Below are positions 17,874 through 29,846 of a stretch of DNA of 64,000 bases, piece after piece (the stretch's first letter is position 1; every line of letters begins with the position of its first letter). The stretch lies in NCBI RefSeq assembly GCF_039533165.1, contig NZ_BAAATA010000012.1; one strand, 5' to 3'. The notes beneath the pieces are model-generated. The model was not told the origin of the DNA, ran no database searches, and saw only the letters and a program-made list of their open reading frames with translations. The stretch is from Streptomyces thermolineatus (GTDB lineage Bacteria; Actinomycetota; Actinomycetes; Streptomycetales; Streptomycetaceae). Made by a program: the position numbers and the translations under genes.

Positions 17874-18084
17874 GCGGCGCGGCGGACGCGGCGAAGGCGA
17901 CGAACGCCGTCCACGCCTCCGGGGAGAACGCGAGCGTCCCGCCCTCCCGGTCCTTGGAGTCCCGCACGCGGACGGCACCGGGGGCCACGGCGACCTCCAC
18001 GCACTCCCCGCCGTCGCCGCCGCTGTAACTGCTCTTGAACCAGGTCGGTTCAAGGACTGCGCCTTCGGACCGATCGTTGCTCAC
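17860..18084 (-). CDS. DUF397 domain protein
   Basis: The ORF is 74 aa. WFKSSYSGGDGGECVEVAV...VRVRDSKDREGGTLAFSPEAWTAF is the classic DUF397 pattern. Confidence 0.8.
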   Translation of the reverse strand: MSNDRSEGAVLEPTWFKSSYSGGDGGECVEVAVAPGAVRVRDSKDREGGTLAFSPEAWTAFVAFAASAAPLTER

Positions 18085-18896
18085 AGTTCCCCCAATACCT
18101 GCTCGATGAGGCTCACCGACTCTTCCGGGCTGAGGGCCTGGGCGCGCAGGATCCCGTAGCGCTGCATGAGCACACTCACCTCGTCCTGCTCGGAGATCAG
18201 GAAACTGCCGCGCTGGCCCTCGACGTAGGCCAGGTTACGGCGATCCTGGGTTTCCAGCAGCACCATCGGGCCTTCCAGTCCGGCATGCGTCTCCCGACAG
18301 GTCGGCATGACCTGGAGGGAGACGTTGCGCATCCGCGAGCATTCCAGCAGACGCCTCAACTGCCCCTCCATGACGGCGGAACCACCGATCGGTCGTCGGA
18401 CCACCACCTCCTCGATCACGAAACCCAGTACCGGGCGCGGCGTACGCGTCAGCAGAGTCTGGCGGTCGAGTCGCGCCGCAACGCGCCGCTCCACCTCGTC
18501 GTCGTCGGGCGGAGGACAACTGCCGCCGACCACCGCCCGGGCGTACTCCTCGGTCTGGAGCACGCCCGGGACGGTCTGGTTGCTGTACAAATACATGCTC
18601 ACCGCGTCCGCCTCCAGCATCGCGAAGTCCTGGAACCAGGACGGGTAGCGCGCCTGGGCGAGGAAGGATGCGCCGATCCTGAGCACGCCGCGTGCGTCCA
18701 GTGCCTCGTCGGCCTGGTCCACGAAGCCCTGCTGGGGGATCCGCCGGCCCTGCTCGACGGCGGCCACCATCGCCTCCGAGTACCCCACCCGCTCGCCGAG
18801 TTCGGCGCGGGAGAGCCCCGCACGCCCTCTGAGCAGCTTCAGTTGGCTGCCGAAGTACTTGAGTGTCGTCGAGCCCGCGTCGTTCCTGTTTCCCAT
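18081..18896 (-). CDS. XRE-family HTH regulator with DUF5753 C-terminal domain (WhiJ-like)
   Basis: From the ATG at 18896 the HTH reads LKYFGSQLKLLRGRAGLSRAELGERVGYSEAMVAAVEQGRRIP. A DUF5753-like C-terminal domain follows. There is a 4-bp overlap with the downstream DUF397 gene. Confidence 0.8.
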   Translation of the reverse strand: MGNRNDAGSTTLKYFGSQLKLLRGRAGLSRAELGERVGYSEAMVAAVEQGRRIPQQGFVDQADEALDARGVLRIGASFLAQARYPSWFQDFAMLEADAVSMYLYSNQTVPGVLQTEEYARAVVGGSCPPPDDDEVERRVAARLDRQTLLTRTPRPVLGFVIEEVVVRRPIGGSAVMEGQLRRLLECSRMRNVSLQVMPTCRETHAGLEGPMVLLETQDRRNLAYVEGQRGSFLISEQDEVSVLMQRYGILRAQALSPEESVSLIEQVLGEL

Positions 18897-19050
18897 TCCT
18901 GTCACCCCGTTCGCCGTCGTGTGTGTCCTCCAACTCCGCACGGGCGCAGGGGGTGACGGCGAGCGGCGCGTACCGGTCGGCCGTCACCGCAGACAGCGGT
19001 GCGGGTCCTCGGGAGAGACCTGGCCAGGGTAGGCGGCCTTACGGATCTTT

Positions 19051-19587
19051 GTGCTGATGAAGACTGACATTCCCTCTTCCGTGACTCCGTGTTTCGCCAT
19101 CACCTCCAGCGAGCGGGCGTTCCCCCGGCATCCGTACTCCGTGCGGGCCGCACGGGACCACGTCGCCGCCGTGGTCTCCCGGCTCGCCCCACCCCCGCCG
19201 GGACCTCCGGCTCCTCCGGCCGGTGACGACCGGCTGGACGACGTCCTGGTGTGCGTCTCGGAGCTGGCCACCAACGCCCTGGTCCACGGCGCCCCGCCGG
19301 ACTGCGGTTTCCTGCTGCGGATCACCCTGGTCCGCACGTCCGCCACCGGGGCGGCGACCCTGCGCGTCGAGGTGCACGACGACGGGAAGGACCTGCCGGA
19401 GCAGGCCCCGGACCGGCTCTCTGTCTCCGCCCCCGGCCGGGAGGGCGTGCCCGGGACCGGCGGCCGCGGACTGCTGCTCGTCTCCGCCCTCGCCGACGCC
19501 TGGGGCGTCTCCCGCTTCCGCACCGGCCCGGGCAAGGCGGTCTGGGCCGAGTTCCGGTTCCCCCGGGGCGCGGGCGGAGAGCACTGA
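19051..19587 (+). CDS. ATP-binding protein (HATPase_c, anti-sigma-factor/Ser kinase-like) divergent from WhiJ-like regulator
   Basis: LDDVLVCVSELATNALVHG (N-box) and GTGGRGLLLVSALADAWGV (G-box) are present. The arrangement is the typical third member of XRE/DUF397/ATPase loci. Confidence 0.75.
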   Translation: MLMKTDIPSSVTPCFAITSSERAFPRHPYSVRAARDHVAAVVSRLAPPPPGPPAPPAGDDRLDDVLVCVSELATNALVHGAPPDCGFLLRITLVRTSATGAATLRVEVHDDGKDLPEQAPDRLSVSAPGREGVPGTGGRGLLLVSALADAWGVSRFRTGPGKAVWAEFRFPRGAGGEH

Positions 19588-19921
19588 GGCGGGCACCCGG
19601 CGCGCGGCCCGGGAGCGGCGGACGTTGTCGGACCCGTCTGCGACGGTGCGCGCGGGGCGGCGCGAGGAGCCGTCCGGATCGGCACCGGGGGCATGATGAC
19701 AAATCGCGACCACGGCTGGGCGGGTGTGACCTGGAAGGACCGGCAGGACCACGAGGTCGTCCGGCGGCGTCTCGACCACGGGGCCGATCCGGAGGGATGG
19801 GGCGCTGGGGCCTGTTGTGAATGTCCTGATCGCGCGGGGTCCGGCGCCCACTGGGGGTGTCATTGTCAGTGGTGCTGTGCATGATCGGCGCGTCAGCTTT
19901 TCGCGGAGGCAGGGAAGCACC

Positions 19922-20263
19922 ATGCCGATCACAAACCAGCAGGTAACGGAGCACGCGTTCCTGCGGCAGATGTACGACGACTCGTACTTCCCCGATCGTG
20001 TGGTCGATCAGGGGAAGGCGATCCTGCTGCGGCTGTGCGAACGCATCGAGGCCAAGCAGCCGCTGGACCTGGAGAGCCTGTACGCACTCACCCGGGCTGC
20101 GACGGAGGAGTTCAACCTGCTGGACAGGGAGTTCGTGGCGGCCGGGAGCGAGATCGAGACGGTGGCGCGGGAGTGGATCTGTGACGAGTTTTGCTTTGTC
20201 GCGTCGGCATACGGGTTCATGGACGCGGATGCGGAGGAGCTGACCTCCGGCCGGGACTGGTGA
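19922..20263 (+). CDS. hypothetical small protein (113 aa), markedly lower GC than surroundings
   Basis: The protein reads MPITNQQVTEHAFLRQMYDDSYFPDRVVDQGKAILLRLCERIEAKQPLDLESLYALTRAATEEFNLLDREFVAAGSEIETVAREWICDEFCFVASAYGFMDADAEELTSGRDW. A GGAGGCAGGG RBS is present. Composition is roughly 60% GC against >70% for the neighbours. Confidence 0.5.
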   Translation: MPITNQQVTEHAFLRQMYDDSYFPDRVVDQGKAILLRLCERIEAKQPLDLESLYALTRAATEEFNLLDREFVAAGSEIETVAREWICDEFCFVASAYGFMDADAEELTSGRDW

Positions 20264-20269
20264 ACGACG

Positions 20270-21202
20270 ACGGGAAGGCCGCCTCCGATCAGAGCCATTC
20301 GTTGAGGGCTGCGATCAGCACGGTCGCCTCGTGGCGGACGGCGAGCTTGTCGTAGCGGGTGGCCACGGCACGGTGCCTCTTGAGGCGGTTGTCCCGCGCT
20401 CGGCCGCGTGGCGCTGGCGGTGGTCGGCCGGGGCGAAGCGCGGCGGCCGACCACGGCGGGAGCCGAGTTTCAGGCGGTTGCGCGCCTGGTCGGCCTTGTC
20501 CGGGATGGTGCAGCGGATCCCGCGGCGGCGCAGGTAGGCGCGGTTCCTTCGGGAGGCGTACGCCTTGTCAGCACGCACTCGATCGGGACGGACACGTGGC
20601 CGGCCCGATGCGAGGCACGCGGACCTTTGCCGGCACGGGTTCGAACTGCGGTGAGTCCCCGCGCTGTCCTGCCGTGATCACGATCGGCATGGGCTTCCGG
20701 CCCTGCTCGAAGACCAGGTGCAGCTTGGTGGTGAACCCGCCGCGCGAGCGTCCCGGCCCGTGATCACGGGGTTCGGTGAAGACGCCACCTGGTGGTTCCT
20801 TCTGCAGGTCGCCCTGGCTGCGGGCTCCGGCCGCGTGCTGGTGGGCACGACGGACCGTGGAGTCGACGCTCGGGTCCCGGGTGATCGCCCCCTCCGCGTC
20901 AGCCGGGACCTGAAGCCGGGTGAGGACCCTGTGCCGGGTTCCGTCCCGCTGCCACCGGCGGAACAGGTCATAGACCCGGCCCCGCGGTCCGTGCTCGACG
21001 GGGACGCCCCGCCACGGAACACCGGTCCGGACCCGGAACCGTATGCCGTCGATCAGACGCCGCCGGGGCCGGACGGGCGGCCGCCCTGCCCCGGCGCCCT
21101 TCGGCAACAACGGCTCCAGCACCGCCCACTGCTCGTCCGTGGGATCTCCCCGACCCATGAACCTGATCATCCACAGCCCGAGAGCCGCTTTCGATGCACG
21201 GC
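20270..21202 (-). mobile_element. IS5-family (IS427/DUF4096-type) insertion sequence, ~0.93 kb, transposase disrupted
   Basis: The transposase N-terminus reads MIRFMGRGDPTDEQWAVLEPLLPKGAGAGRPPVRPRRRLIDGIRFRVRTGVPWRGVPVEHGPRGRVYDLFRRWQRDG. The DDE region reads DKAYASRRNRAYLRRRGIRCTIPDK. The canonical C-terminus RDNRLKRHRAVATRYDKLAVRHEATVLIAAINEWL* is only readable in a third frame ending at 20290. Boundaries are inferred from the transposase start and stop. TIRs and target duplication were not verified. Confidence 0.7.
20290..21170 (-). pseudogene. IS5-family transposase with frame disruptions
   Basis: The coding potential is split over three frames. ORF 20568..21170 is the N-terminal part. 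ORF 20315..20578 is the central part. A further frame carries the C-terminal NRLKRHRAVATRYDK...NEWL. The last shift looks like a 1-bp deletion within the conserved INRLK codons. The first shift could be a natural orfA/orfB frameshift site. Confidence 0.6.
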
Positions 21203-22231
21203 CTAGTAGTAACGCAGCAGCGCGCCCTGGCCGCGATGGTCGGAGTACTGCGGGGCCAGGGTGCCGGCGCCGCCGGCCGACTGGCGGGCGAGCGCGTAGT
21301 CGACGGTGACCTGGTTGTAGACGGCGTAGGTCTTCACAAACAGGAAGTCGATCCGGGTACTGGCGTGGGTCCAGTGATTGGCGTCCAGGCAGTTGTAGTC
21401 GCCCCCGCAAGCACGGTACATCGCGTCCTTCCAGCCCAGGTTCGCGACGGTGGTGCCGCAGGTACCGGGGTAGTCGACGTTGGTGCCCTTGTACCAGCAC
21501 TCCCAGGCGACCTGCCCGGAGGAGTTGAGGGTGCCGTCGAGGTGGTTCCAGTCCCCCGCCATGATCTGCATCGACGCCGAGCCGAGGCCCTGGACCGCCG
21601 AGCTGATGCTCTTCGTGTTCTCCCACGCGCAGTCGGCGTCGGGGTTGGACGCGTTGTCCGCGACGACGGGCAGGTGGACGGATGCCACGTTGATGAACTT
21701 GCTCGTGTCGAGGTCGTCCTTGAGGCGCAGCACCAATGCGTACCAGTTGCTCAGAGTGGTGCAGTCCGCGTCCGCGTTCGCCCGCGTCTTGAGCTGGACC
21801 TCCTGCATGGTGCCGCCGACGTACGACAGCCGACCGGTCCGGTACGCGATGGCGGATCCGCCGGTCTCCGCCGTCTCGTAGCAGTGGTAGTCGAGCCCCC
21901 CGGTGCTGTTCTGCAGGTCGGTCACGAACTGCTGGCAGCTCGGGACGCCCAGCGACGCCGTGCCGGCCTCCTGCAGCGTCACGATGTCCGGCACGTACGC
22001 GACCCGGGCCGGGTCGGTGATGTAGGCGATGAACTCGCGGTAGTCGGTGCAGGGGCTGGTGCCGCAGCTGCTCGAATCGGTGCGCATGTGGTGCGTGTTG
22101 AGGTTCCAGACCTGCAGCCGGTCGGTCGGCGCGCCTGTCTGGCCGGCGGCGTACGCGGTCCCGGCGTGCACCGTCACGATGCCGAGCGCGCCCATCAGTG
22201 CCGCGACGATGAAGGTCAGCAGAGACCTCAT
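21203..22231 (-). CDS. secreted endonuclease/exonuclease/phosphatase (EEP) family protein
   Basis: The signal peptide is MRSLLTFIVAALMGALGIVTVHAGTAYAAG. LQVWNLNTHHM, IVTLQE, MAGDWNHLD and SDHRG are EEP catalytic motifs. The 5' end of the gene is low in GC. The stop codon lies directly at the IS boundary. Confidence 0.65.
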   Translation of the reverse strand: MRSLLTFIVAALMGALGIVTVHAGTAYAAGQTGAPTDRLQVWNLNTHHMRTDSSSCGTSPCTDYREFIAYITDPARVAYVPDIVTLQEAGTASLGVPSCQQFVTDLQNSTGGLDYHCYETAETGGSAIAYRTGRLSYVGGTMQEVQLKTRANADADCTTLSNWYALVLRLKDDLDTSKFINVASVHLPVVADNASNPDADCAWENTKSISSAVQGLGSASMQIMAGDWNHLDGTLNSSGQVAWECWYKGTNVDYPGTCGTTVANLGWKDAMYRACGGDYNCLDANHWTHASTRIDFLFVKTYAVYNQVTVDYALARQSAGGAGTLAPQYSDHRGQGALLRYY

Positions 22232-22574
22232 GGACCGCTTGGCCCGTCGTACGCGTCGGTCCGCCGGCACTGCCGGGGCGACCGCCGCCACCCCTCTGAA
22301 TGCCTTGTTCATGTCAATGTTCACGAGCGGTCAGTCTGATGGACCGTCAAAGACAATGGCAACAGGACTGGCACGTTCCGCGCAAAGCCTGTCGGCGGGG
22401 CGAGCGGGGGTGACCGGGTGCCCCGCTCGTGCACGGCCCACGGCCGACCCGGCAGTCGTACCGGCGGCCGTAGCCCCGTCGAAGGCGCCGCTGGAAGCCG
22501 GTTTCCGGGCATGGGCCCCGAGGCACGGCGGAAACCGGTTGGCAGAGGCCGGAGTCCACGGCCAGGATCACGGT

Positions 22575-23177
22575 ATGACGGTTTTCCTGGCGACCGGCCG
22601 GATGGTGCTGCGCCCGTTCACCGGGGCCGACGCGGACCACTTGGCCGCCCTCGACGGCGACCCGGAGGTCATGCGGTTCCTCGACGGGGGCGGCCCGACC
22701 TCCCCCGAGGCGGTTCGGGCGCACGTCCTGCCCCGGCTGATGTCCCGCCACGCGTGGCCCGCGGTCCACGGCTACTGGGCCGCCGAGGCCGGGGGTGGCG
22801 AGGGGAGCGGCGGAGGCGCCGGCCGCGCCGGGGAGTTCCTGGGCTGGTTCGAGTTCCGGCCGCTGGACGAGGACGGCGGCGGCGGGACGGTCGAGCTCGG
22901 GTACCGGCTGCGCCGGGCGGCCTGGGGGCTCGGACTGGCCACCGAGGGGGCCCGGGCCCTGCTGCACAAGGGATTCACCGAGCTCGGCGTGGAGCGCGTG
23001 ACGGCCACCACGATGGCGGTCAACGTCGGCTCCCGCCGGGTGATGGAGAAGGCCGGGCTGCGGTACGTGCGCACCTTCCACCAGGAGTGGCCGCACCCGC
23101 TGCCGGGATCCGAGCACGGCGAGGTGGAGTACGCGCTGACCGCGCAGGAGTGGCGGCGGGAGGCCCCGCCCGCCTGA
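22575..23177 (+). CDS. GNAT family N-acetyltransferase (RimJ/RimL-like)
   Basis: MTVFLATGRMVLRPFTGADADHLAALDGDPEVMRFL is typical of the Acetyltransf_3 N-terminus. The acetyl-CoA motif RRAAWGLGLATEGARALL is present. Confidence 0.75.
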   Translation: MTVFLATGRMVLRPFTGADADHLAALDGDPEVMRFLDGGGPTSPEAVRAHVLPRLMSRHAWPAVHGYWAAEAGGGEGSGGGAGRAGEFLGWFEFRPLDEDGGGGTVELGYRLRRAAWGLGLATEGARALLHKGFTELGVERVTATTMAVNVGSRRVMEKAGLRYVRTFHQEWPHPLPGSEHGEVEYALTAQEWRREAPPA

Positions 23178-23343: not shown

Positions 23344-25500
23344 GTGGGACGATCAGTGACTTGCACCACACTGTGCGTTCCTGCGCCCGCGCGTGTCCGA
23401 GGGGAGACAAGCAGCGTGCCCGAACCACCCGAACACCCCGTCGGCATCGAGGGGATAGAGGCGCTCTACCGCGAGTGCCGGCAGCGTACCGGCAGCACCC
23501 GGCGACGGCGGGAGGGGGACCTGCCGGTCATCGTGCTGGTGGGCCGCCGGGGCAACGGCAAGACCGCCGTGCTCAAGTGGCTCCGGCACCGCGGGTCGCG
23601 GCGCCCCTGCGCGATGTACGACTTCCGCGACGCGGGCGCGGTGCGGCCCCACGAGGTGGCCCGGCAGATCGCCTTCGGCCTGTCCCAGCGCCTGCACCGG
23701 CAGCCTCCGCTGTACTTCCCGCGGCTGCAGCTGGGGCTGCTGGCGGTCGCCCCGGGGCTGACCCTGGACGGCTCCGACGCCCGGCTCGCCGGCGCACAGC
23801 TGCGGGAGGCGCTGCGGCGCGACGAGGCGCGGGGCCAGTTCGCCGACCAGGTGTCGAACGCGGTCGGGTTCCTGCAGGAGCTCAACCTGCTGCCCGTCCC
23901 CGGTGTCGCGTTCGCGGCCGGCCTGCTCCTGCGCGGCCGGTCGGTGCTGCCGCCCAGGGCCGTGTGGAGGACCGGCCTGGCCTGGTACAGCCGGCACCGC
24001 CAGCACGCGCCGCTGGACGCGCTGGTGCACCTGAACAAGCTGAGCAGGAGCACCTCGCCCGCCGACCTGGCCGAGGTCGACGAGCAGTTGTGCAGGGCCT
24101 TCCTCGCCGACCTGCGCGCCGGCTACCGGCGCGGCCGGCGGGACCGCAACTGCACGGTCCTGCTGGACAACGTCGACAGCCCCGGGGGCCGCCCGTTCCT
24201 GGACCTGCTGGTGCGGCTGCGCGACACCGACGCGCAGGACGGCCTGGACCCCGACCCGCTGGTCGTCCTCGCCACCGCCTCGACGATCCGCAGGGTGCCC
24301 GGAGTGTCCTCCGCCGGGCCGGGGCTGCCGCGGATCCGGCAGGCGGAGGCCGTCTCCTACCGGGACTGGGCCGACAGCCGGCCGGCCCGCCCGCACGACA
24401 GCACCTGGCGCTGGTACCCCGTGCAACTGCCCGACCTGACCGCCGCCGAGGTCTCCCGGCTGGGCGCGCGGCTGGCGCCGCGGCTGCCGGAGGCCACCCC
24501 GCTGGTACACCGGCTGACCTACGGCCACCCGTGGAGCGTGCACCTGCTGCACGGGGCGGTCTCGGAGATCATCGGCCAGGGCGGCGGCGACCCGGAGCTG
24601 CGCAGGATCCTGGAGCGGGAGGTGGAGCCGCAGGACGGCGCGGGCGGCACTGGCGCCCCGCACGGCGCGGGCGGCACCGGCGGCGCGGTGCGGCTGGAGC
24701 AGCACGCCCTGCACCACCTGCTGCAGGACCTGGGCGACCAGCAGCGCAGGGCCCTCGTCCTGTGCTCGGCGGCGCGGGAGTTCGACACGGCCACCGACGC
24801 CGGGCTGCTGACGCGCTTCACCGAGCAGACCCAGCGGACGCTGGGTCAGGAGGTCCGCTCCCGGCTGTGGCTCGTCGACCCGGTCCCGGAGGACGCGGGC
24901 ACCCGCGGCGGCAGGGGGTCCGGCTACCTCCTCGGCCCGGCGGCGCCGCACCTGCTGAGCAGCGGTCCGGTCATGCACACCTGGCTGCGGCTGCTCCTGC
25001 TCGGGGAGCTGGCCGGCCTTCCGGACTCCAGCCCGCTGAACTGGACCACGGCGCACGAGCAGCTGTGCGGCTGGCACCGGGACCACGACCGGCCCGTGGA
25101 CGCCCTGTACCACCGGCTGGCGCTCGGCGGGCTCGACGAGGTCGTCGAGCACCTGTCCGCCCGCATGTGGGAGCTGCCCGGCACCGCGGCCTGGCTGTAC
25201 GAGCTGTACGCGGTCACCGCGGCCCCGATGCGGCGGCCCGTGGACCCGGAGGTCTCGGCCGCCGAGCGGGCGGACGCCCTGGCGCGCGAGCTGGCGCCGC
25301 GGTCCTTCCGCGACAGCCGCTCCCTCGCCGTGCTGACCGCCGCGCTGTGGCTGGCGGCCGACCCGCGCAACCGCCTGCCCAACGCCGCTCCCGAGCTGAA
25401 CTACACGATCAGCTCGATGTTCCTGGAACTGGCCGTGACCTCCGACGCCCGCATCGCCGGGCTGCGGCACGAGGCCGCCCGGTACGACGTCCACCTGTGA
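23344..25500 (+). CDS. STAND-type P-loop NTPase (NB-ARC-like core) with C-terminal helical domain
   Basis: The Walker A is VIVLVGRRGNGKTAVLKWL and the Walker B is CTVLLDNVD. Sensor-like LVVLATASTIRR and a GxP-like HRLTYGHPWSVHLL follow. The ~330-aa helical C-terminal region has no recognisable effector domain. The GTG at 23344 has an AAGGAAG RBS. The ORF is open from 23269. Confidence 0.6.
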   Translation: MGRSVTCTTLCVPAPARVRGETSSVPEPPEHPVGIEGIEALYRECRQRTGSTRRRREGDLPVIVLVGRRGNGKTAVLKWLRHRGSRRPCAMYDFRDAGAVRPHEVARQIAFGLSQRLHRQPPLYFPRLQLGLLAVAPGLTLDGSDARLAGAQLREALRRDEARGQFADQVSNAVGFLQELNLLPVPGVAFAAGLLLRGRSVLPPRAVWRTGLAWYSRHRQHAPLDALVHLNKLSRSTSPADLAEVDEQLCRAFLADLRAGYRRGRRDRNCTVLLDNVDSPGGRPFLDLLVRLRDTDAQDGLDPDPLVVLATASTIRRVPGVSSAGPGLPRIRQAEAVSYRDWADSRPARPHDSTWRWYPVQLPDLTAAEVSRLGARLAPRLPEATPLVHRLTYGHPWSVHLLHGAVSEIIGQGGGDPELRRILEREVEPQDGAGGTGAPHGAGGTGGAVRLEQHALHHLLQDLGDQQRRALVLCSAAREFDTATDAGLLTRFTEQTQRTLGQEVRSRLWLVDPVPEDAGTRGGRGSGYLLGPAAPHLLSSGPVMHTWLRLLLLGELAGLPDSSPLNWTTAHEQLCGWHRDHDRPVDALYHRLALGGLDEVVEHLSARMWELPGTAAWLYELYAVTAAPMRRPVDPEVSAAERADALARELAPRSFRDSRSLAVLTAALWLAADPRNRLPNAAPELNYTISSMFLELAVTSDARIAGLRHEAARYDVHL

Positions 25501-25584
25501 TCGGCGGTCCGGCGGACCGCCGGACCGCGCGCCCCGCCCGGCAGTGAACCGCTCGCCGGGCAGCGCACCGAAGGGAGCGCCCCG

Positions 25585-27132
25585 ATGACCCCGTCCAGGT
25601 CCGTGCCGGACCCTCTGTCCGCCTTCGACGCCCCCTACGACCCCGTCCCTCCCTGGTGGAGGGGGTGGCGCGGGACCGTGGCGGTGCTGCTCGCCCTCGC
25701 ACTGGCCGCCGCCGGAGCCGTGTGGCTGGCCCTGCCGGAGGACACCTCCTGCGCCGAGGGGGTGGCGCGGGTCTCCCCGGAGGGGGAGTGCGTCGGGCTG
25801 ACCGACGGCAGCCACGCCTTCTCCTCCGACCTCGAGCACGTCTTCGGCCTGATCCGGAAGGAGAACGAGCGGGTCGTGGAGCAGGCCGGCAAGCCCGGCG
25901 GGGCGCCGTACGTCAGCGTCGTCTACCTGATGCGGATGGTCCCGGGCCCCGGTGACACCAACACCCTCGCCTCCGTCCGGCACGAACTGCAGGGCGCCCA
26001 CATCGCCCAGTACCAGGCCAACCACGCCGGGGTGCGCGGCGACTCCCCGCAGATCAGGCTGCTGCTCGCGCACACGGGGGCGGGCAAGCAGGAGCGGGAC
26101 TTCACCCTGGAGCGGATCCGGGAACGCAGGAAGCAGGACCGGATCGTGGCGGTCGCGGGCCTGGGCACCAGCACCGACGCCACCGAGACCACCGTGCGCC
26201 GGCTCATCCGCACCGGGCTCCCGGCCGTCGGCGCGGTGATCACCTCCAACAGCCTGGAGGGGATCAACGGCCTGGTGCGGGTCGCCCCCTCCAACGCGGA
26301 CGAGGCCGCGGCCGCCGCGCACTACCTGAAGGAGTCGCACCCGAGGGCGAAGGTGCTGCTCGTGCGGGACCGCCGCAAGGACGACCACTACAGCAAGACC
26401 CTCGCCGAGTCCTTCGAGAAGAACTTCCCCGCCGACCGGATCGTGCAGCGGATGGAGTTCGACTCCTCCCGCAGCAGCGTGTCGACGTACTTCACCATCC
26501 AGACGGCGAACCTGTGCCAGGCGAAACCGGACGTGGTCTTCTTCGCCGGCCGCGGGGTCGACCTGCCCAGGATGCTCAGCCCGCTGTCCGGCCGGCACTG
26601 CAAGGACCGCGAGCTGACGGTGATCTCCGGCGACGACGCCTCGCAGACCGCCCAGGCCGAGGGGTTCGACAAGGTCACCGAGGCGCTGCAGCGGGGCAGG
26701 ATCCGTCTGGTCTACACCGGGCTGGCCCACCAGGACGCGTGGAAGAAGGAACCGGGCGCCTTCGACCCGGTGGCGGTCGGCGTGTTCGGCAAGGACGGCC
26801 GCTTCCGGAAGGCGTTCCCCCGCGAGGGGCTCGACGACGGCCAGGCGATCATGGGGCACGACGCCGTCGTCACCGCGGTCGCCGCGATCCGCGAGGCCAC
26901 CCGCGGGGTCCCGGCCCAGAAGATCACCGGGAGCGACGTCATGCAGCTGCTGTCCGCCCTCCAGGGCGAGACCGCCGTGGCCGGTGCCAGCGGGCTGATC
27001 AGCCTGGCGCCCAACGGCAGCCCGGTCGACAAGGCGATCCCGGTCATCGAGATAGACGGCCGCGGCCGGGTGTCCACCGTGGCGGTCTCCTCCCGCACCG
27101 GCGAGCCGCCGCGCGGCACCCCCGGCGGGTGA
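25585..27132 (+). CDS. membrane-anchored periplasmic-binding-protein type 1 (Leu/Ile/Val-binding/Peripla_BP_6-like) domain protein
   Basis: An N-terminal cytoplasmic segment precedes a single TM (GTVAVLLALALAAAGAVWLAL). The extracytoplasmic domain has PBP1 features (IVAVAGLGTSTDA, AVGAVITSNSLEG, KVLLVRD, DVVFFAG). The RBS is AAGGGAG. Confidence 0.6.
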   Translation: MTPSRSVPDPLSAFDAPYDPVPPWWRGWRGTVAVLLALALAAAGAVWLALPEDTSCAEGVARVSPEGECVGLTDGSHAFSSDLEHVFGLIRKENERVVEQAGKPGGAPYVSVVYLMRMVPGPGDTNTLASVRHELQGAHIAQYQANHAGVRGDSPQIRLLLAHTGAGKQERDFTLERIRERRKQDRIVAVAGLGTSTDATETTVRRLIRTGLPAVGAVITSNSLEGINGLVRVAPSNADEAAAAAHYLKESHPRAKVLLVRDRRKDDHYSKTLAESFEKNFPADRIVQRMEFDSSRSSVSTYFTIQTANLCQAKPDVVFFAGRGVDLPRMLSPLSGRHCKDRELTVISGDDASQTAQAEGFDKVTEALQRGRIRLVYTGLAHQDAWKKEPGAFDPVAVGVFGKDGRFRKAFPREGLDDGQAIMGHDAVVTAVAAIREATRGVPAQKITGSDVMQLLSALQGETAVAGASGLISLAPNGSPVDKAIPVIEIDGRGRVSTVAVSSRTGEPPRGTPGG

Positions 27133-27180
27133 CGCGGCCGGACGGCCCGGCGCGCACCGTGGCGGTCCGGGCGGCGGCCG

Positions 27181-29079
27181 GTGATCCTGGAGGACCGCCG
27201 GCCGGGCGGCCTGGAGGAAGGGAGCGCACAGGTGGCGTACGAGGTGTGGGCGCCGGAAGCGCGCCGGGTGGAGGTACGGATCGGCGGCGGCGCGGACAGC
27301 GGTGACGGCGGCAGCGGCGGCGGCAACGGCACAGACCATCCGATGCGGCCCGTCCCCGGCCGGGACGGCTGGTGGCGCTCGGCCGACGGCCTGCCGCGCG
27401 AGCACGGCACCCGGTACGCGTTCCGCCTCGACGGCGGCCCGCTGCGGCCCGACCCGCGCTCGCGCCGCCAGCCGGACGGCCCCGACGGGCCGAGCGCCGT
27501 CGTCGACCACTCCGCCTTCCCCTGGACCGACGCCGGCTGGACCGGGCGCCCCCTGGCCGGCGCCGTGCTGTACGAGCTGCACGTGGGCACCTTCACCCCC
27601 GAGGGCACCTTCGACGCGGCGGCCGGGCGGCTGGACCACCTGGTGCGCCTGGGCGTCACCCACGTGGAGCTGATGCCGGTGTGCTCCTTCCCGGGGGTGC
27701 ACGGCTGGGGGTACGACGGGGTGTCGCCGTGGGCGGTGCACGAGCCCTACGGCGGCCCGGACGGCCTCAAGCGCTTCGTGGACGCCGCCCACGCCGCCGG
27801 GCTGGCCGTCGTGCTGGACGTGGTGCACAACCACCTCGGCCCGTCCGGCAACCACCTCCCGGCCTTCGGCCCGTACTTCACCGACACCCACCACACCCCG
27901 TGGGGCTCGGCCGTCAACCTCGACGCCCCCGGCTCGGACGAGGTGCGCGCCTACCTGATCGGCAGCGCCCTGTCCTGGCTGCGCGACCACCACCTGGACG
28001 GCCTGCGGCTGGACGCCGTGCACGCCCTCGCCGACACCCGGGCGGTGCACTTCCTGGAGGAACTGTCGGCCGCCGTCGACGCCCTGTCCGCCTCCCTGGG
28101 CCGCCCGCTGGTGCTGATCGCCGAGTCCGACCGCAACGACCCGCGCACCACCGCCGCCCGCGAGGCCGGCGGCCTGGGCCTGCACGCCCAGTGGAACGAC
28201 GACTTCCACCACGCCCTGCACACCGCCCTGACCGGCGAGTCCCGCGGCTACTACGCGGACTTCGCCCGAGCGCCGATGGCCGCGCTGGCCCGCACCCTGA
28301 CCGGGGTGTGGTTCCACGACGGCTGCTTCTCCTCCTTCCGCGGCCGCGCCCACGGGCGCCCGGTGGACCGGCGCACCACCCCCGCCCACCGCTTCCTCGG
28401 CTACGCCCAGACCCACGACCAGGTCGGCAACCGGGCGGTCGGCGACCGGCTGTCCGCCTCCCTGCCGCCCGGCCTGCTCGCGGCGGGCGCGGCACTCGTC
28501 CTCACATCGCCGTTCACCCCGATGCTGTTCATGGGCGAGGAGTGGGGCGCCGGCACCCCGTGGCAGTTCTTCACCGACCACACCGACCCGGAGCTGGCCG
28601 AGGCGGTGCGGCGCGGCCGCAGGCGGGAGTTCGCGGCGCACGGCTGGTCCGAGGAGAACGTCCCCGACCCGCAGGACCCGGCCACCCGGGACCGCTCCTG
28701 CCTGGACTGGTCCGAGCCGGGGCGCGCCCCGCACGCCGGCCTGCTGGAGTGGCACCGCACCCTGCTCGCCCTGCGCCGCGCGCTCCCGGAGCTGACCGAC
28801 CCCGACCTGACGGCGGTGTCGGTGGACTTCGACGAGGCCGCCCGGTGGATCACCGTCCGACGCGGAGAGGTGCACACCGTCGTGAACCTCTCCGGCACGC
28901 CCGTCGGGATCCCCCTGCACGGACACGGCGGCGGGGACGCGGGAGGAGGCGGGACCGTCGAGCTGCTGGCCGCCTTCGCGGACTCCGGCGCGGACGTCCC
29001 CCCTCCCTCCCCCGGCGGGCCCCTGCGCCTGCCGCCCCGGTCCGCCGCCGTCCTGCGCCGACGGCCCGTCCTGCGCTGA
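27181..29079 (+). CDS. treZ: malto-oligosyltrehalose trehalohydrolase TreZ
   Basis: YEVWAPEARRVEVRI, GAVLYELHVGTFTPEGTF, GVTHVELMPV and VVLDVVHNHLGPSGN are present. The protein is 632 aa and uses a GTG start. Confidence 0.9.
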   Translation: MILEDRRPGGLEEGSAQVAYEVWAPEARRVEVRIGGGADSGDGGSGGGNGTDHPMRPVPGRDGWWRSADGLPREHGTRYAFRLDGGPLRPDPRSRRQPDGPDGPSAVVDHSAFPWTDAGWTGRPLAGAVLYELHVGTFTPEGTFDAAAGRLDHLVRLGVTHVELMPVCSFPGVHGWGYDGVSPWAVHEPYGGPDGLKRFVDAAHAAGLAVVLDVVHNHLGPSGNHLPAFGPYFTDTHHTPWGSAVNLDAPGSDEVRAYLIGSALSWLRDHHLDGLRLDAVHALADTRAVHFLEELSAAVDALSASLGRPLVLIAESDRNDPRTTAAREAGGLGLHAQWNDDFHHALHTALTGESRGYYADFARAPMAALARTLTGVWFHDGCFSSFRGRAHGRPVDRRTTPAHRFLGYAQTHDQVGNRAVGDRLSASLPPGLLAAGAALVLTSPFTPMLFMGEEWGAGTPWQFFTDHTDPELAEAVRRGRRREFAAHGWSEENVPDPQDPATRDRSCLDWSEPGRAPHAGLLEWHRTLLALRRALPELTDPDLTAVSVDFDEAARWITVRRGEVHTVVNLSGTPVGIPLHGHGGGDAGGGGTVELLAAFADSGADVPPPSPGGPLRLPPRSAAVLRRRPVLR

Positions 29080-29097
29080 CGGGCCCGGGCCCGTTTG
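29079..29097 (+). terminator. possible intrinsic terminator/hairpin after treZ
   Basis: The palindromic GC stem ACGGGCCCGGGCCCGT is followed by TTTGAC immediately after the treZ stop. Confidence 0.3.
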
Positions 29098-29100
29098 ACT

Positions 29101-29120
29101 TAGGTATTTAAACATACCTA
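29101..29120. promoter_or_regulatory. AT-rich palindrome (TAGGTAT-TTAAAC-ATACCTA), candidate MarR operator
   Basis: The 7-bp perfect inverted arms have a 6-bp spacer. They lie 12 bp upstream of the MarR ATG. The AT-richness is exceptional for this sequence. Confidence 0.5.
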
Positions 29121-29131
29121 TCTTGGAAAAC

Positions 29132-29605
29132 ATGTCCGACAGCAGTGCGTCCGAACAGCGCATCGACCGCGTGGCCTCCGAGCTCGCGGCGTGCCTGCCC
29201 GCACTGCACCGGGCCCTGGAGCGGCGGATCGCGGCGGAGTACCCCCACCCCAAGCCGCCCGAGGGGCAGCTCGCGCTGCTGCGGTTCGTCGAGCAGCACG
29301 AGGGCGCCACGGTCCGCGAGGCGGCCGAGGCTCTGCTGATGAAGCCCAACAACGTCAGCGCCCTGGTCTCCCAGCTCACGGAGCGCGGAGAACTGGAGCG
29401 CCGGCAGGACAGCGCCGACAAGCGGGTCGCCCACCTCCACACCACCGAGCTCTCGCGGCAGCGGATCGCCGAGGTGCGCGACCTCGAGGAGCACCACCTC
29501 GGCCGGGCACTGCTGTCCCTCACCGACGGCGAGACGGACGCGCTCGGTTCCGCCGTCGGGGCGCTGAAAGCGCTGACGCGCCACCTCCACCCCGCGACCC
29601 GCTGA
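29132..29605 (+). CDS. MarR family transcriptional regulator
   Basis: LALLRFVEQHEGATVREAAEALLMKPNNVSALVSQLTERGELERRQDSADKRVAHLHTTE is a winged-helix MarR core. A TTG at 29123 is an alternative start. Confidence 0.8.
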   Translation: MSDSSASEQRIDRVASELAACLPALHRALERRIAAEYPHPKPPEGQLALLRFVEQHEGATVREAAEALLMKPNNVSALVSQLTERGELERRQDSADKRVAHLHTTELSRQRIAEVRDLEEHHLGRALLSLTDGETDALGSAVGALKALTRHLHPATR

Positions 29606-29846
29606 CGACAGCGGGCCGCGGGCCCGCGCGCGTTCCCGCGCCGAAGCGCTCCGCACTCCGCGTTCCGCTTCCCCTTACTCCCCTTTCCTCCCCTCCCGAG
29701 GGCGGTCCTCGTCCGGACGGCCCTCGTTCGCGGTCCCCGCCCGCCCCGCCCCTCGCCGGCCGGGCGGACGACCGGGCCTGCCGTGGAACTGCCCACCACC
29801 CCGTGCAGTTCGTCCGTCCCCTTTCGAGAAAGAAACGGCTCTCTTC

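Follow-up and report, generated by a model that had tools for sequence, protein, structure and literature searches.

The stretch analysed here, 64,000 nucleotides of Streptomyces thermolineatus DNA (contig NZ_BAAATA010000012.1, assembly GCF_039533165.1) which we call the window, carries on its plus strand a gene for a STAND-like P-loop NTPase and, directly behind it, a gene for a protein with one transmembrane (TM) helix and an extracytoplasmic domain of the PBP1 type of periplasmic binding proteins (PBP). We find it reasonably probable that their products together make up a transmembrane receptor with a single membrane pass, each contributing one half. They are read as a split receptor with its sensor outside the cell because the genes are strictly linked, fall into the same clades and have relatives in which NTPase, linker, TM helix and PBP1 domain form one chain.

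Two adjacent genes and their products

The G+C content of about 74% across the window makes long open reading frames (ORFs) common in many frames. Third-position GC (GC3) marks three consecutive plus-strand genes: the NTPase gene (0.95, taken from the most upstream start of the frame, 23269, to 25500), the PBP gene (25585..27132, 0.975) and a further gene at 27181..29079 (0.97). An antisense ORF of 2148 aa, 23353..29799 (-), spans all three and was rejected as a by-product of the high G+C content (codon-position GC 0.92/0.57/0.77). Codon 50 of the longest ORF, GTG 23416, is where the N-terminal consensus of the NTPase family (MxxxxxxPxG...) begins to align, and the ribosome-binding site (RBS) GAGGGGAG precedes this codon. 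For these two reasons the NTPase most likely starts at GTG 23416 and is 694 aa long, and the start at 23344 given in the first-pass annotation, with a product of about 720 aa, is less likely. The same annotation was right in giving the second gene an RBS of its own, GAAGGGAG, before its ATG, but the gap between the genes, stated there as 85 bp, measures 84 nt and holds a strong hairpin. This is a very stable GC-rich double stem-loop at 25500-25566, between the NTPase stop codon and the PBP RBS (z -4.1 against shuffles), which may govern how strongly each gene is expressed relative to the other. A scan for sigma-70 promoters and intrinsic terminators gave nothing usable.

By its predicted fold the first protein is STAND-like. 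The four motifs that had been picked out by eye, GRRGNGKT, VLLDNVD, the strand VVLATAST and TYGHPW, are all present and conserved across 76 orthologues, and TYGHPW lies between helices 360-368 and 372-387. Another motif, VMHTWLR, follows a strand and opens helix 522-534; we take it to be comparable to the MHD motif of NB-ARC proteins. There is no N-terminal effector, since only about 37 residues precede strand 1 of the NTPase in the predicted structure, and the domain scans and the structure model both uphold the original description of a STAND-like fold with no N-terminal effector or helix-turn-helix (HTH). The long, TPR-like C-terminal sensor of that description was not borne out, as the helical region is only about 150 aa long and has no match to Pfam TPR; WD40 and LRR models did not match the NTPase either. 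The position of a C-terminal sensor is taken by the PBP1 ectodomain, because this is where the fused relatives place the TM helix and PBP1. Among the features that are said to define STAND proteins, a P-loop core with Walker A and B and a GxP lid are found here, while a match to a curated model, an N-terminal effector or adaptor and a repeat-built C-terminal sensor are not.

No curated STAND model reaches its threshold with the window NTPase. Below threshold, Pfam gives AAA_22 (21.1 against 27), AAA_16 (17.6 against 32.6) and nSTAND6 (13.9 against 27.7 bits), and the homologue P0010 scores 25.5 bits with nSTAND5 (threshold 34); the likeness to nSTAND5 and nSTAND6 is weak and confined to some 35-60 residues around the P-loop. 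Matches of the NTPase to NCBIfam models all stayed far below threshold, and searches of PDB sequences, both with the single sequence and with a profile, gave P-loop matches only. In Foldseek against the PDB every E-value was 1e-3 or worse, with poor TM-scores and without resolving the C-terminal domain. The nearest structural relatives of the NTPase are STAND proteins and not other AAA+ proteins. The insertion ahead of Walker B is specific for the family and carries an invariant FPRL as well as a conserved, moderately hydrophobic loop modelled with low confidence (residues 150-180), whose hydropathy, averaged over the family, reaches a maximum of about 1.3 over 15 residues, below TM level. A KAP-type NTPase, with TM helices within the P-loop domain, had been suggested by the long spacing between Walker A and B and was rejected, as the hydropathy shows no TM segment and there is no KAP match.

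The second protein is 100% identical to an S. thermolineatus protein annotated as 'ABC transporter substrate-binding protein'. In its AlphaFold2 (AF2) model (pLDDT 92.8), an N-terminal tail of 27 residues leads into a helix (residues 28-49), after which come a hairpin bracketed by Cys and an alpha/beta domain of two lobes. Foldseek matches the model to LivK (3td9, E 1.7e-18, TM-score on target 0.78), to several LivJ/K-type proteins (TM-scores on target 0.78-0.81) and to mGluR ligand-binding domains (E 1e-16). The window sequence itself has no Pfam PBP match even at E<=1 and nothing above threshold in NCBIfam; PF13458 or PF01094 are recorded in the precomputed annotation of homologues that share 50-57% identity with it, and searches of PDB sequences gave weak matches to LivK and LivJ, the family profile reaching LivK at E 1.4e-4. 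The PBP1 fold is assigned on the strength of these homologues, the LivK/LivJ profile match and the AF2 and Foldseek results taken together. The first-pass annotation had called it a TM-anchored PBP1 protein, which agrees with the helix at 28-49, the missing lipobox and the LivK-like fold. A lipoprotein or a cleaved signal peptide was considered and rejected, since the residues before the conserved Cys (DTS, STD, DTR) misfit a lipobox and the fused relatives have the helix in the interior of the chain.

Two Cys pairs, C56/C69 and C311/C339, are conserved in the PBP family, and S196, D262, Y269, R323 and D426 are invariant. In a hidden Markov model alignment to LivJ, which is weak (E 0.01), the nearly invariant T220 and the invariant Y269 and R323 fall on LivJ T102, Y150 and Y202, which we take to be ligand-contacting residues. 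This conservation suggests a small-molecule site in the PBP1 cleft, possibly a carboxylate-binding one.

Table 1. Features of the NTPase and PBP genes, in window coordinates
Feature	Position	Strand	Remarks
STAND-like P-loop NTPase gene	23416..25500	+	694 aa from GTG 23416; open frame reaches up to ATG 23269
Walker A, GRRGNGKT	23542..23565	+	G43, G46 and G48 invariant; Lys49 is K in 64/76 and R in 12/76 orthologues
Helical insertion of about 140 aa, strand 2 to Walker B	23713..24135	+	DSSP helices 102-239; pLDDT <50 at 149-174
Walker B, VLLDNVD	24157..24177	+	D251 invariant; D254 in 74/76
GxP motif of the helical lid, TYGHPW	24517..24534	+	G370 and H371 invariant; P372 in 64/76
MHD-like motif ending the winged-helix domain, VMHTWLR	24970..24990	+	H521 conserved in at least 80%, W523/L524 in at least 95%
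C-terminal helical domain, about 150 aa	25042..25497	+	eight predicted helices, residues 543-688, pLDDT >90
Intercistronic spacer, 84 nt	25501..25584	+	GC-rich stem-loops and RBS GAAGGGAG; minimum free energy -59.8 kcal/mol, z -4.1
Membrane-anchored PBP1 protein gene, 515 aa	25585..27132	+	GC3 0.975; 100% identical annotated protein; AF2 pLDDT 92.8
Cytoplasmic N-terminal tail with juxtamembrane Pro/Trp/Arg motif PPWWRG	25585..25665	+	motif kept in all clades
Single TM helix, signal anchor, N-in	25666..25731	+	AF2 helix 28-49; no lipobox; internal in fusions
Extracytoplasmic PBP1 (Venus-flytrap) domain	25747..27099	+	Foldseek, LivK/LivJ profile match, conservation

Linkage, co-divergence and fusion of the pair

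The genome scan covered one genome per species with two clade-specific peptide patterns and found 77 loci, in Streptomyces, Kitasatospora, Embleya, Actinacidiphila and Streptantibioticus. A PBP homologue lies directly downstream on the same strand at all 77, a count that holds for the clade so defined, the wider family having been sampled. At about 30% NTPase identity the pairing persists at seven more distant loci (Crossiella equi, Nocardia callitridis, Streptosporangium, two more Streptomyces, one metagenome contig and a kinase-fused NTPase variant), where the downstream genes match the PBP profile with E-values of 1e-110 to 1e-190 and in four cases the start codon of the PBP gene overlaps the stop codon of the NTPase gene. 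The two genes have also diverged together: the five multi-member clusters have the same membership by NTPase identity and by PBP identity, and the pairwise identities of the two proteins are correlated (r = 0.80). Conserved co-occurrence had been set beforehand as the test on which the proposed pairing would stand or fall, and the adjacency at the 77 loci, the distant pairs and the single-chain fusions all speak for it. Neither the 8-kb flanks of the 77 loci (about 700 flanking ORFs, clustered) nor the surroundings of the fused genes hold a third conserved gene or a linked effector, and the next commonest flanking cluster, the one with treZ, is found at 13 loci.

One clade of 29 loci (L001-L017, L019, L021, L022, L041, L046, L047, L055, L057, L065, L069, L076 and L077) has the NTPases closest to that of the window (46-55%, tblastn), with PBPs that are only 31-35% identical to the window PBP; in other clades the PBP identity is 49-58%. 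This points to a faster divergence or an old replacement of the PBP ectodomain in that clade, and several of the presumed pocket residues are still invariant there.

A profile search of 1.8 billion representative sequences, which come without taxonomy and are clustered at 50% identity, gave 986 clusters of the NTPase family at E<=1e-3 and 467 at E<=1e-30. Wherever an organism name was recovered, the family is limited to filamentous Actinomycetota, and the NTPase members that were looked up are annotated as 'hypothetical protein' or 'ATP-binding protein'. Among 192 members examined, 12 are full-length single chains of 1078-1192 aa that run from the NTPase through a linker of 30-50 aa, a basic cluster and a TM helix to PBP1. 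The fused relative P0160 scores above the threshold of its Pfam PBP model (45.5 vs 31.7 bits), and one of the 12 clears the Pfam thresholds for AAA_22 and Peripla_BP_6 alike. The fusions turn up in assemblies that are independent of one another, among them a RefSeq protein of Actinophytocola sediminis (WP_460394622.1) and one from a metagenome-assembled genome of Streptosporangiaceae, and the two fused genes whose flanks were read stand alone among unrelated genes. In a crude neighbour-joining tree the fused and split forms are interleaved, and this scatter of fusions among split forms suggests repeated fusion or fission. The order of the domains in the fusions is the topology predicted for the split pair, in which the C-terminus of the NTPase meets the cytoplasmic N-tail of the PBP protein, and the split PBP proteins still carry the [F/W]xPP-basic linker motif of the fusions in their N-tail.

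Additional N-terminal domains are present in only two of the 192 relatives, protein kinase domains in P0041 and a receiver domain with a LuxR-type HTH in P0236. The latter, a metagenomic protein of 1068 aa, has an uncharacterised region of about 200 aa as well ahead of the nucleotide-binding oligomerisation domain (NOD) module, and no other member of the family was seen to carry a DNA-binding output; the contig of P0236 is too short to show whether a PBP gene lies downstream.

Given this pattern we regard it as hardly credible that the adjacency is meaningless and that an orphan substrate-binding protein (SBP) of a branched-chain amino-acid ABC importer happens to lie beside an unrelated ATPase, even if the public annotation as an ABC transporter subunit and a fold nearest to LivK/LivJ are what such a protein would show. 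The two genes stay together in 77 of 77 genomes and also in distant genera, and the covalent fusions contradict an accidental neighbourhood. The window PBP has neither the operon partners nor the cleaved signal or lipobox by which the substrate-binding subunit of an ABC importer is recognised, but a TM anchor. The first-pass annotation had already set it apart from ABC-transporter operons, and this stands: the genes around the pair in the window include no permease or ATPase of an ABC transporter, and ABC_tran and BPD_transp are not among the 25 most frequent Pfam families in the 106 flanking proteins of the related loci.

The gene at 27181..29079 (+) begins 48 nt 3' of the PBP gene and encodes a GH13 enzyme with the Pfam domains CBM_48, Alpha-amylase and DUF3459, which from this architecture we presume to be TreZ-like. 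It is followed by a MarR gene and an MFS transporter gene. A treZ homologue lies directly downstream of the PBP gene in 16 of the 77 related loci (tblastn), over two clades, and because the same arrangement recurs in this way the treZ-side junction looks ancestral and not island-borne. The upstream flank has a counterpart in none of the other loci. It consists of a GNAT acetyltransferase (in ORF 22047-23177), a minus-strand gene of the endonuclease/exonuclease/phosphatase (EEP) family and an IS5-type transposase fragment, so that both the GNAT gene and the insertion sequence first noted beside the pair are indeed there. The fragment, of IS4/5 type (DUF4096, within ORF 20568-21626), and the EEP gene (21203-22324) lie side by side at 20568-22324 (-), and GC3 drops to low values around 19900-21100, which suggests a decayed insertion directly upstream of the GNAT gene. 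Further away, at 18084-19587, there is a divergent pair of an HTH_31 + DUF5753 regulator (-) and a small HATPase_c_2 protein (+), presumably akin to the WhiJ/AbaA-type clusters that we take to be common in Streptomyces; a DUF5753/DUF397 pair is also found near the fused gene in L087.

A probable receptor split between two genes, weighed against other readings

The PBP1 clade of the window is not confined to the NTPase pairs. Proteins that are 42-47% identical to the window PBP carry other modules before the TM helix: a Ser/Thr kinase in P0116 (47% identity), a caspase in P0117 (42%) and a coiled-coil in P0113. Since the same clade sits behind one TM helix on kinase, caspase and coiled-coil proteins, it behaves, as judged from these architectures, as a portable extracellular sensor.

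We hypothesize that the receptor would work in the following way. The PBP1 Venus-flytrap ectodomain would bind a small extracellular ligand, probably an amino-acid-like or carboxylate-bearing one, and a single N-terminal helix would hold the protein in the membrane with its short Pro/Trp/Arg-rich tail in the cytoplasm. The cytoplasmic switch would be the NTPase, with its nucleotide-binding domain (NBD) and helical insertion, GxP lid, winged helix with the MHD-like His and 150-aa helical C-terminal domain. The latter domain would meet the tail or the TM helix of the PBP protein, in the same way as the two are joined in the fused relatives, and closure or dimerisation of the ectodomain upon ligand binding could be relayed through the helix and the tail. 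By analogy with other STAND proteins, the NTPase may then shift between an ADP-locked monomer and an ATP-bound oligomer. The output would probably be the recruitment or release of a partner encoded elsewhere, as the NTPase has no effector domain of its own, and Ser/Thr kinase signalling is one candidate because kinase-fused relatives exist. Alternatively, the conserved helical insertion could serve as the output surface.

Several observations weigh against this model. An effector or output domain is absent from both proteins, which leaves the model without half of its pathway, and the structures were predicted for the two monomers separately, so that the contact in the split pair is our inference. 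The sensor-1 Arg is not conserved among the orthologues, the Walker A Lys (codon 23560-23562 in the window) is replaced by Arg in 12 of 76, and the upstream gene of a distant pair, L084, reads GPPGSGAS, without Lys-Thr; some members may thus bind nucleotide without hydrolysing it. The proposed ligand class depends on the weak LivJ profile alignment (E 0.01). Finally, the Trp/Arg-rich juxtamembrane motif is shared by the kinase-, caspase- and coiled-coil-fused PBP proteins, and its value as evidence of NTPase docking was downgraded for this reason; it may be a generic feature of the membrane interface and not a docking site.

The missing cytoplasmic output domain would be easier to understand if the device worked from the inside out, with oligomerisation of the NTPase clustering or repositioning the external PBP1 domains, for example as an envelope or uptake scaffold. 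The gene overlap seen in four of the seven distant pairs points to a fixed stoichiometry that would suit such an assembly, and the strongly conserved NBD insertion could be its oligomerisation surface. We nevertheless hold this to be quite improbable, as the same PBP1 clade is found in the sensor position on a kinase and a caspase, PBP1 takes in the fusions the C-terminal slot that the sensor holds in STAND proteins, and the cleft positions are conserved like a ligand site.

The first-pass annotation had offered the pair as a candidate sensing and defence module. As a conflict system, anti-phage or for programmed cell death, such as has been described in multicellular actinomycetes, PBP1 would sense a cue of infection or damage and the STAND protein would oligomerise and act through an unlinked effector or a built-in one, for which the conserved hydrophobic loop of the NBD insertion is a candidate. 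The STAND/NLR-like fold is in line with this, and so are the related PBP1 ectodomain (42% identity) of the caspase fusion encoded just behind an EACC1 gene and the confinement of the family, as far as organism names were recovered, to filamentous Actinomycetota. Most of the evidence goes the other way, and a role in defence appears unlikely to us. PADLOC has no match to the family (nothing for the PBP, and for the NTPase only a 27-residue P-loop match at E 0.06), some 190 of the 192 members lack an effector domain, and Pfam and the structure models show in the pair neither a defence effector (nuclease, protease, TIR and similar) nor a large sensor of the kind that binds phage proteins. The flanks are heterogeneous: among 106 neighbours, amino-acid permeases and LysR regulators come to six each and matches to defence genes are sporadic (JetA 2, mad genes 2, others 1-3), with no background rate for comparison. 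In Nocardia the copy is found in a core-genome region, pyrG-recN-nadK, and a scan of viral contigs gave no relatives. The residues at the presumed pocket positions are invariant and not diversifying, and at each locus the pair is passed on as a single unit, with a shared clade structure. These results lend the defence part of the first proposal no support.

Relation to known systems and meaning of the pair

The system appears, from its domains, to combine two known kinds, the STAND switches and the receptors with a PBP1 domain. Canonical STAND and NLR proteins (Apaf-1/CED-4, the plant NB-ARC NLRs, MalT, AfsR and the bacterial Avs) have a cytosolic sensor of TPR, WD40 or LRR type, whereas the sensor here would be an extracytoplasmic PBP1 domain on the other side of a TM helix and encoded by a separate gene. 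The window NTPase also differs from them in staying below every Pfam STAND threshold, in its 140-aa helical insertion between strand 2 and Walker B and in its lack of an N-terminal effector or HTH. MalT, in the MalK-MalT system (PDB 8bob), has a LuxR HTH as output, senses cytoplasmic maltotriose and is coupled to transport via the transporter ATPase MalK; in the pair there is no transporter, and in the split form the binding protein itself would be tethered to the STAND protein.

With the single-pass PBP1 receptors, such as the bacterial receptor Ser/Thr kinases (e.g. P0116) and the eukaryotic ANF/natriuretic-peptide receptors, the pair shares the plan of a Venus-flytrap outside, one TM helix and a signalling module inside; the ligand-binding domains of mGluR are alike in fold. 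The cytoplasmic module is here a STAND-like NTPase and not a kinase or cyclase, and in most genomes it is a separate polypeptide. GlnH-GlnX-PknG (PMC8050422) is alike in that an extracytoplasmic SBP informs a cytoplasmic signalling protein via a membrane element, and in actinomycetes, but its SBP is a free lipoprotein that binds a separate four-helix-bundle membrane protein, and its output is a kinase. The same review from 2021 names chemoreceptors, sensor kinases, GGDEF/EAL proteins and Ser/Thr kinases as the signalling partners of SBPs, and leaves STAND, AAA and other NTPases unmentioned.

The nearest likeness on the PBP side is the EACC1-caspase arrangement ('System 4' of Kaur et al. 2020, eLife), to which P0117, a caspase-TM-PBP1 protein behind an EACC1 gene, corresponds. 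TM helices with a downstream extracellular PBP domain are mentioned in this position in the available passages of that paper, which do not describe the NTPase-PBP pair. An EACC1 gene and a caspase are both missing from the window, where the upstream gene is the GNAT acetyltransferase and the partner of the PBP is the NTPase. In Streptomyces pathocidini (L081, 7617-10340) an EACC1 gene lies directly upstream of a gene for a caspase-TM-PBP1 protein with an ectodomain 42% identical to that of the window, and the NTPase-PBP pair of S. pathocidini sits on a different assembly. The literature searched for nSTAND6, for STAND together with periplasmic binding proteins and for the locus tags of homologues yielded nothing on this pair, and it is not described in the STAND and conflict-system papers that were searched. 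The first-pass view that a STAND protein coupled to an external PBP1 domain is uncharacterised is in agreement with this.

The immediate value of these results lies in annotation. The anchor, the genomic context and the fusions contradict the label of ABC transporter subunit, under which the partner PBP is systematically mis-annotated and which can now be corrected. The fused versions, e.g. the Actinophytocola protein WP_460394622.1, are well suited for testing if a ligand outside the cell controls a NOD module inside, and with kinase-, caspase- and NTPase-linked forms of one PBP1 clade a single ligand could be traced into three kinds of output.

The wider reading, which we put forward tentatively and with slightly less than even confidence, is that of a 'transmembrane NLR', widespread in filamentous Actinomycetota in split and fused forms, in which a Venus-flytrap PBP1 domain on the outside of the cell would be the ligand sensor of a STAND/NOD oligomerisation switch. 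It would in effect be a STAND protein whose C-terminal sensor has changed sides of the membrane and is, in most genomes, carried by a separate polypeptide. If this is true, the logic of surface receptors, with an external ligand domain and one TM helix, is joined here with that of cytosolic NLRs, i.e. oligomerisation driven by nucleotide, and the STAND-like switch is a fifth class of receptor beside the four in the review of SBP signalling (PMC8050422). In its strongest form, the system would let a cue from outside the cell feed, via a partner, into a decision on development, cell death or immunity. STAND and NLR proteins are understood as cytosolic sensors, and the pair would, if the reading holds, extend NLR-type signalling across the membrane.

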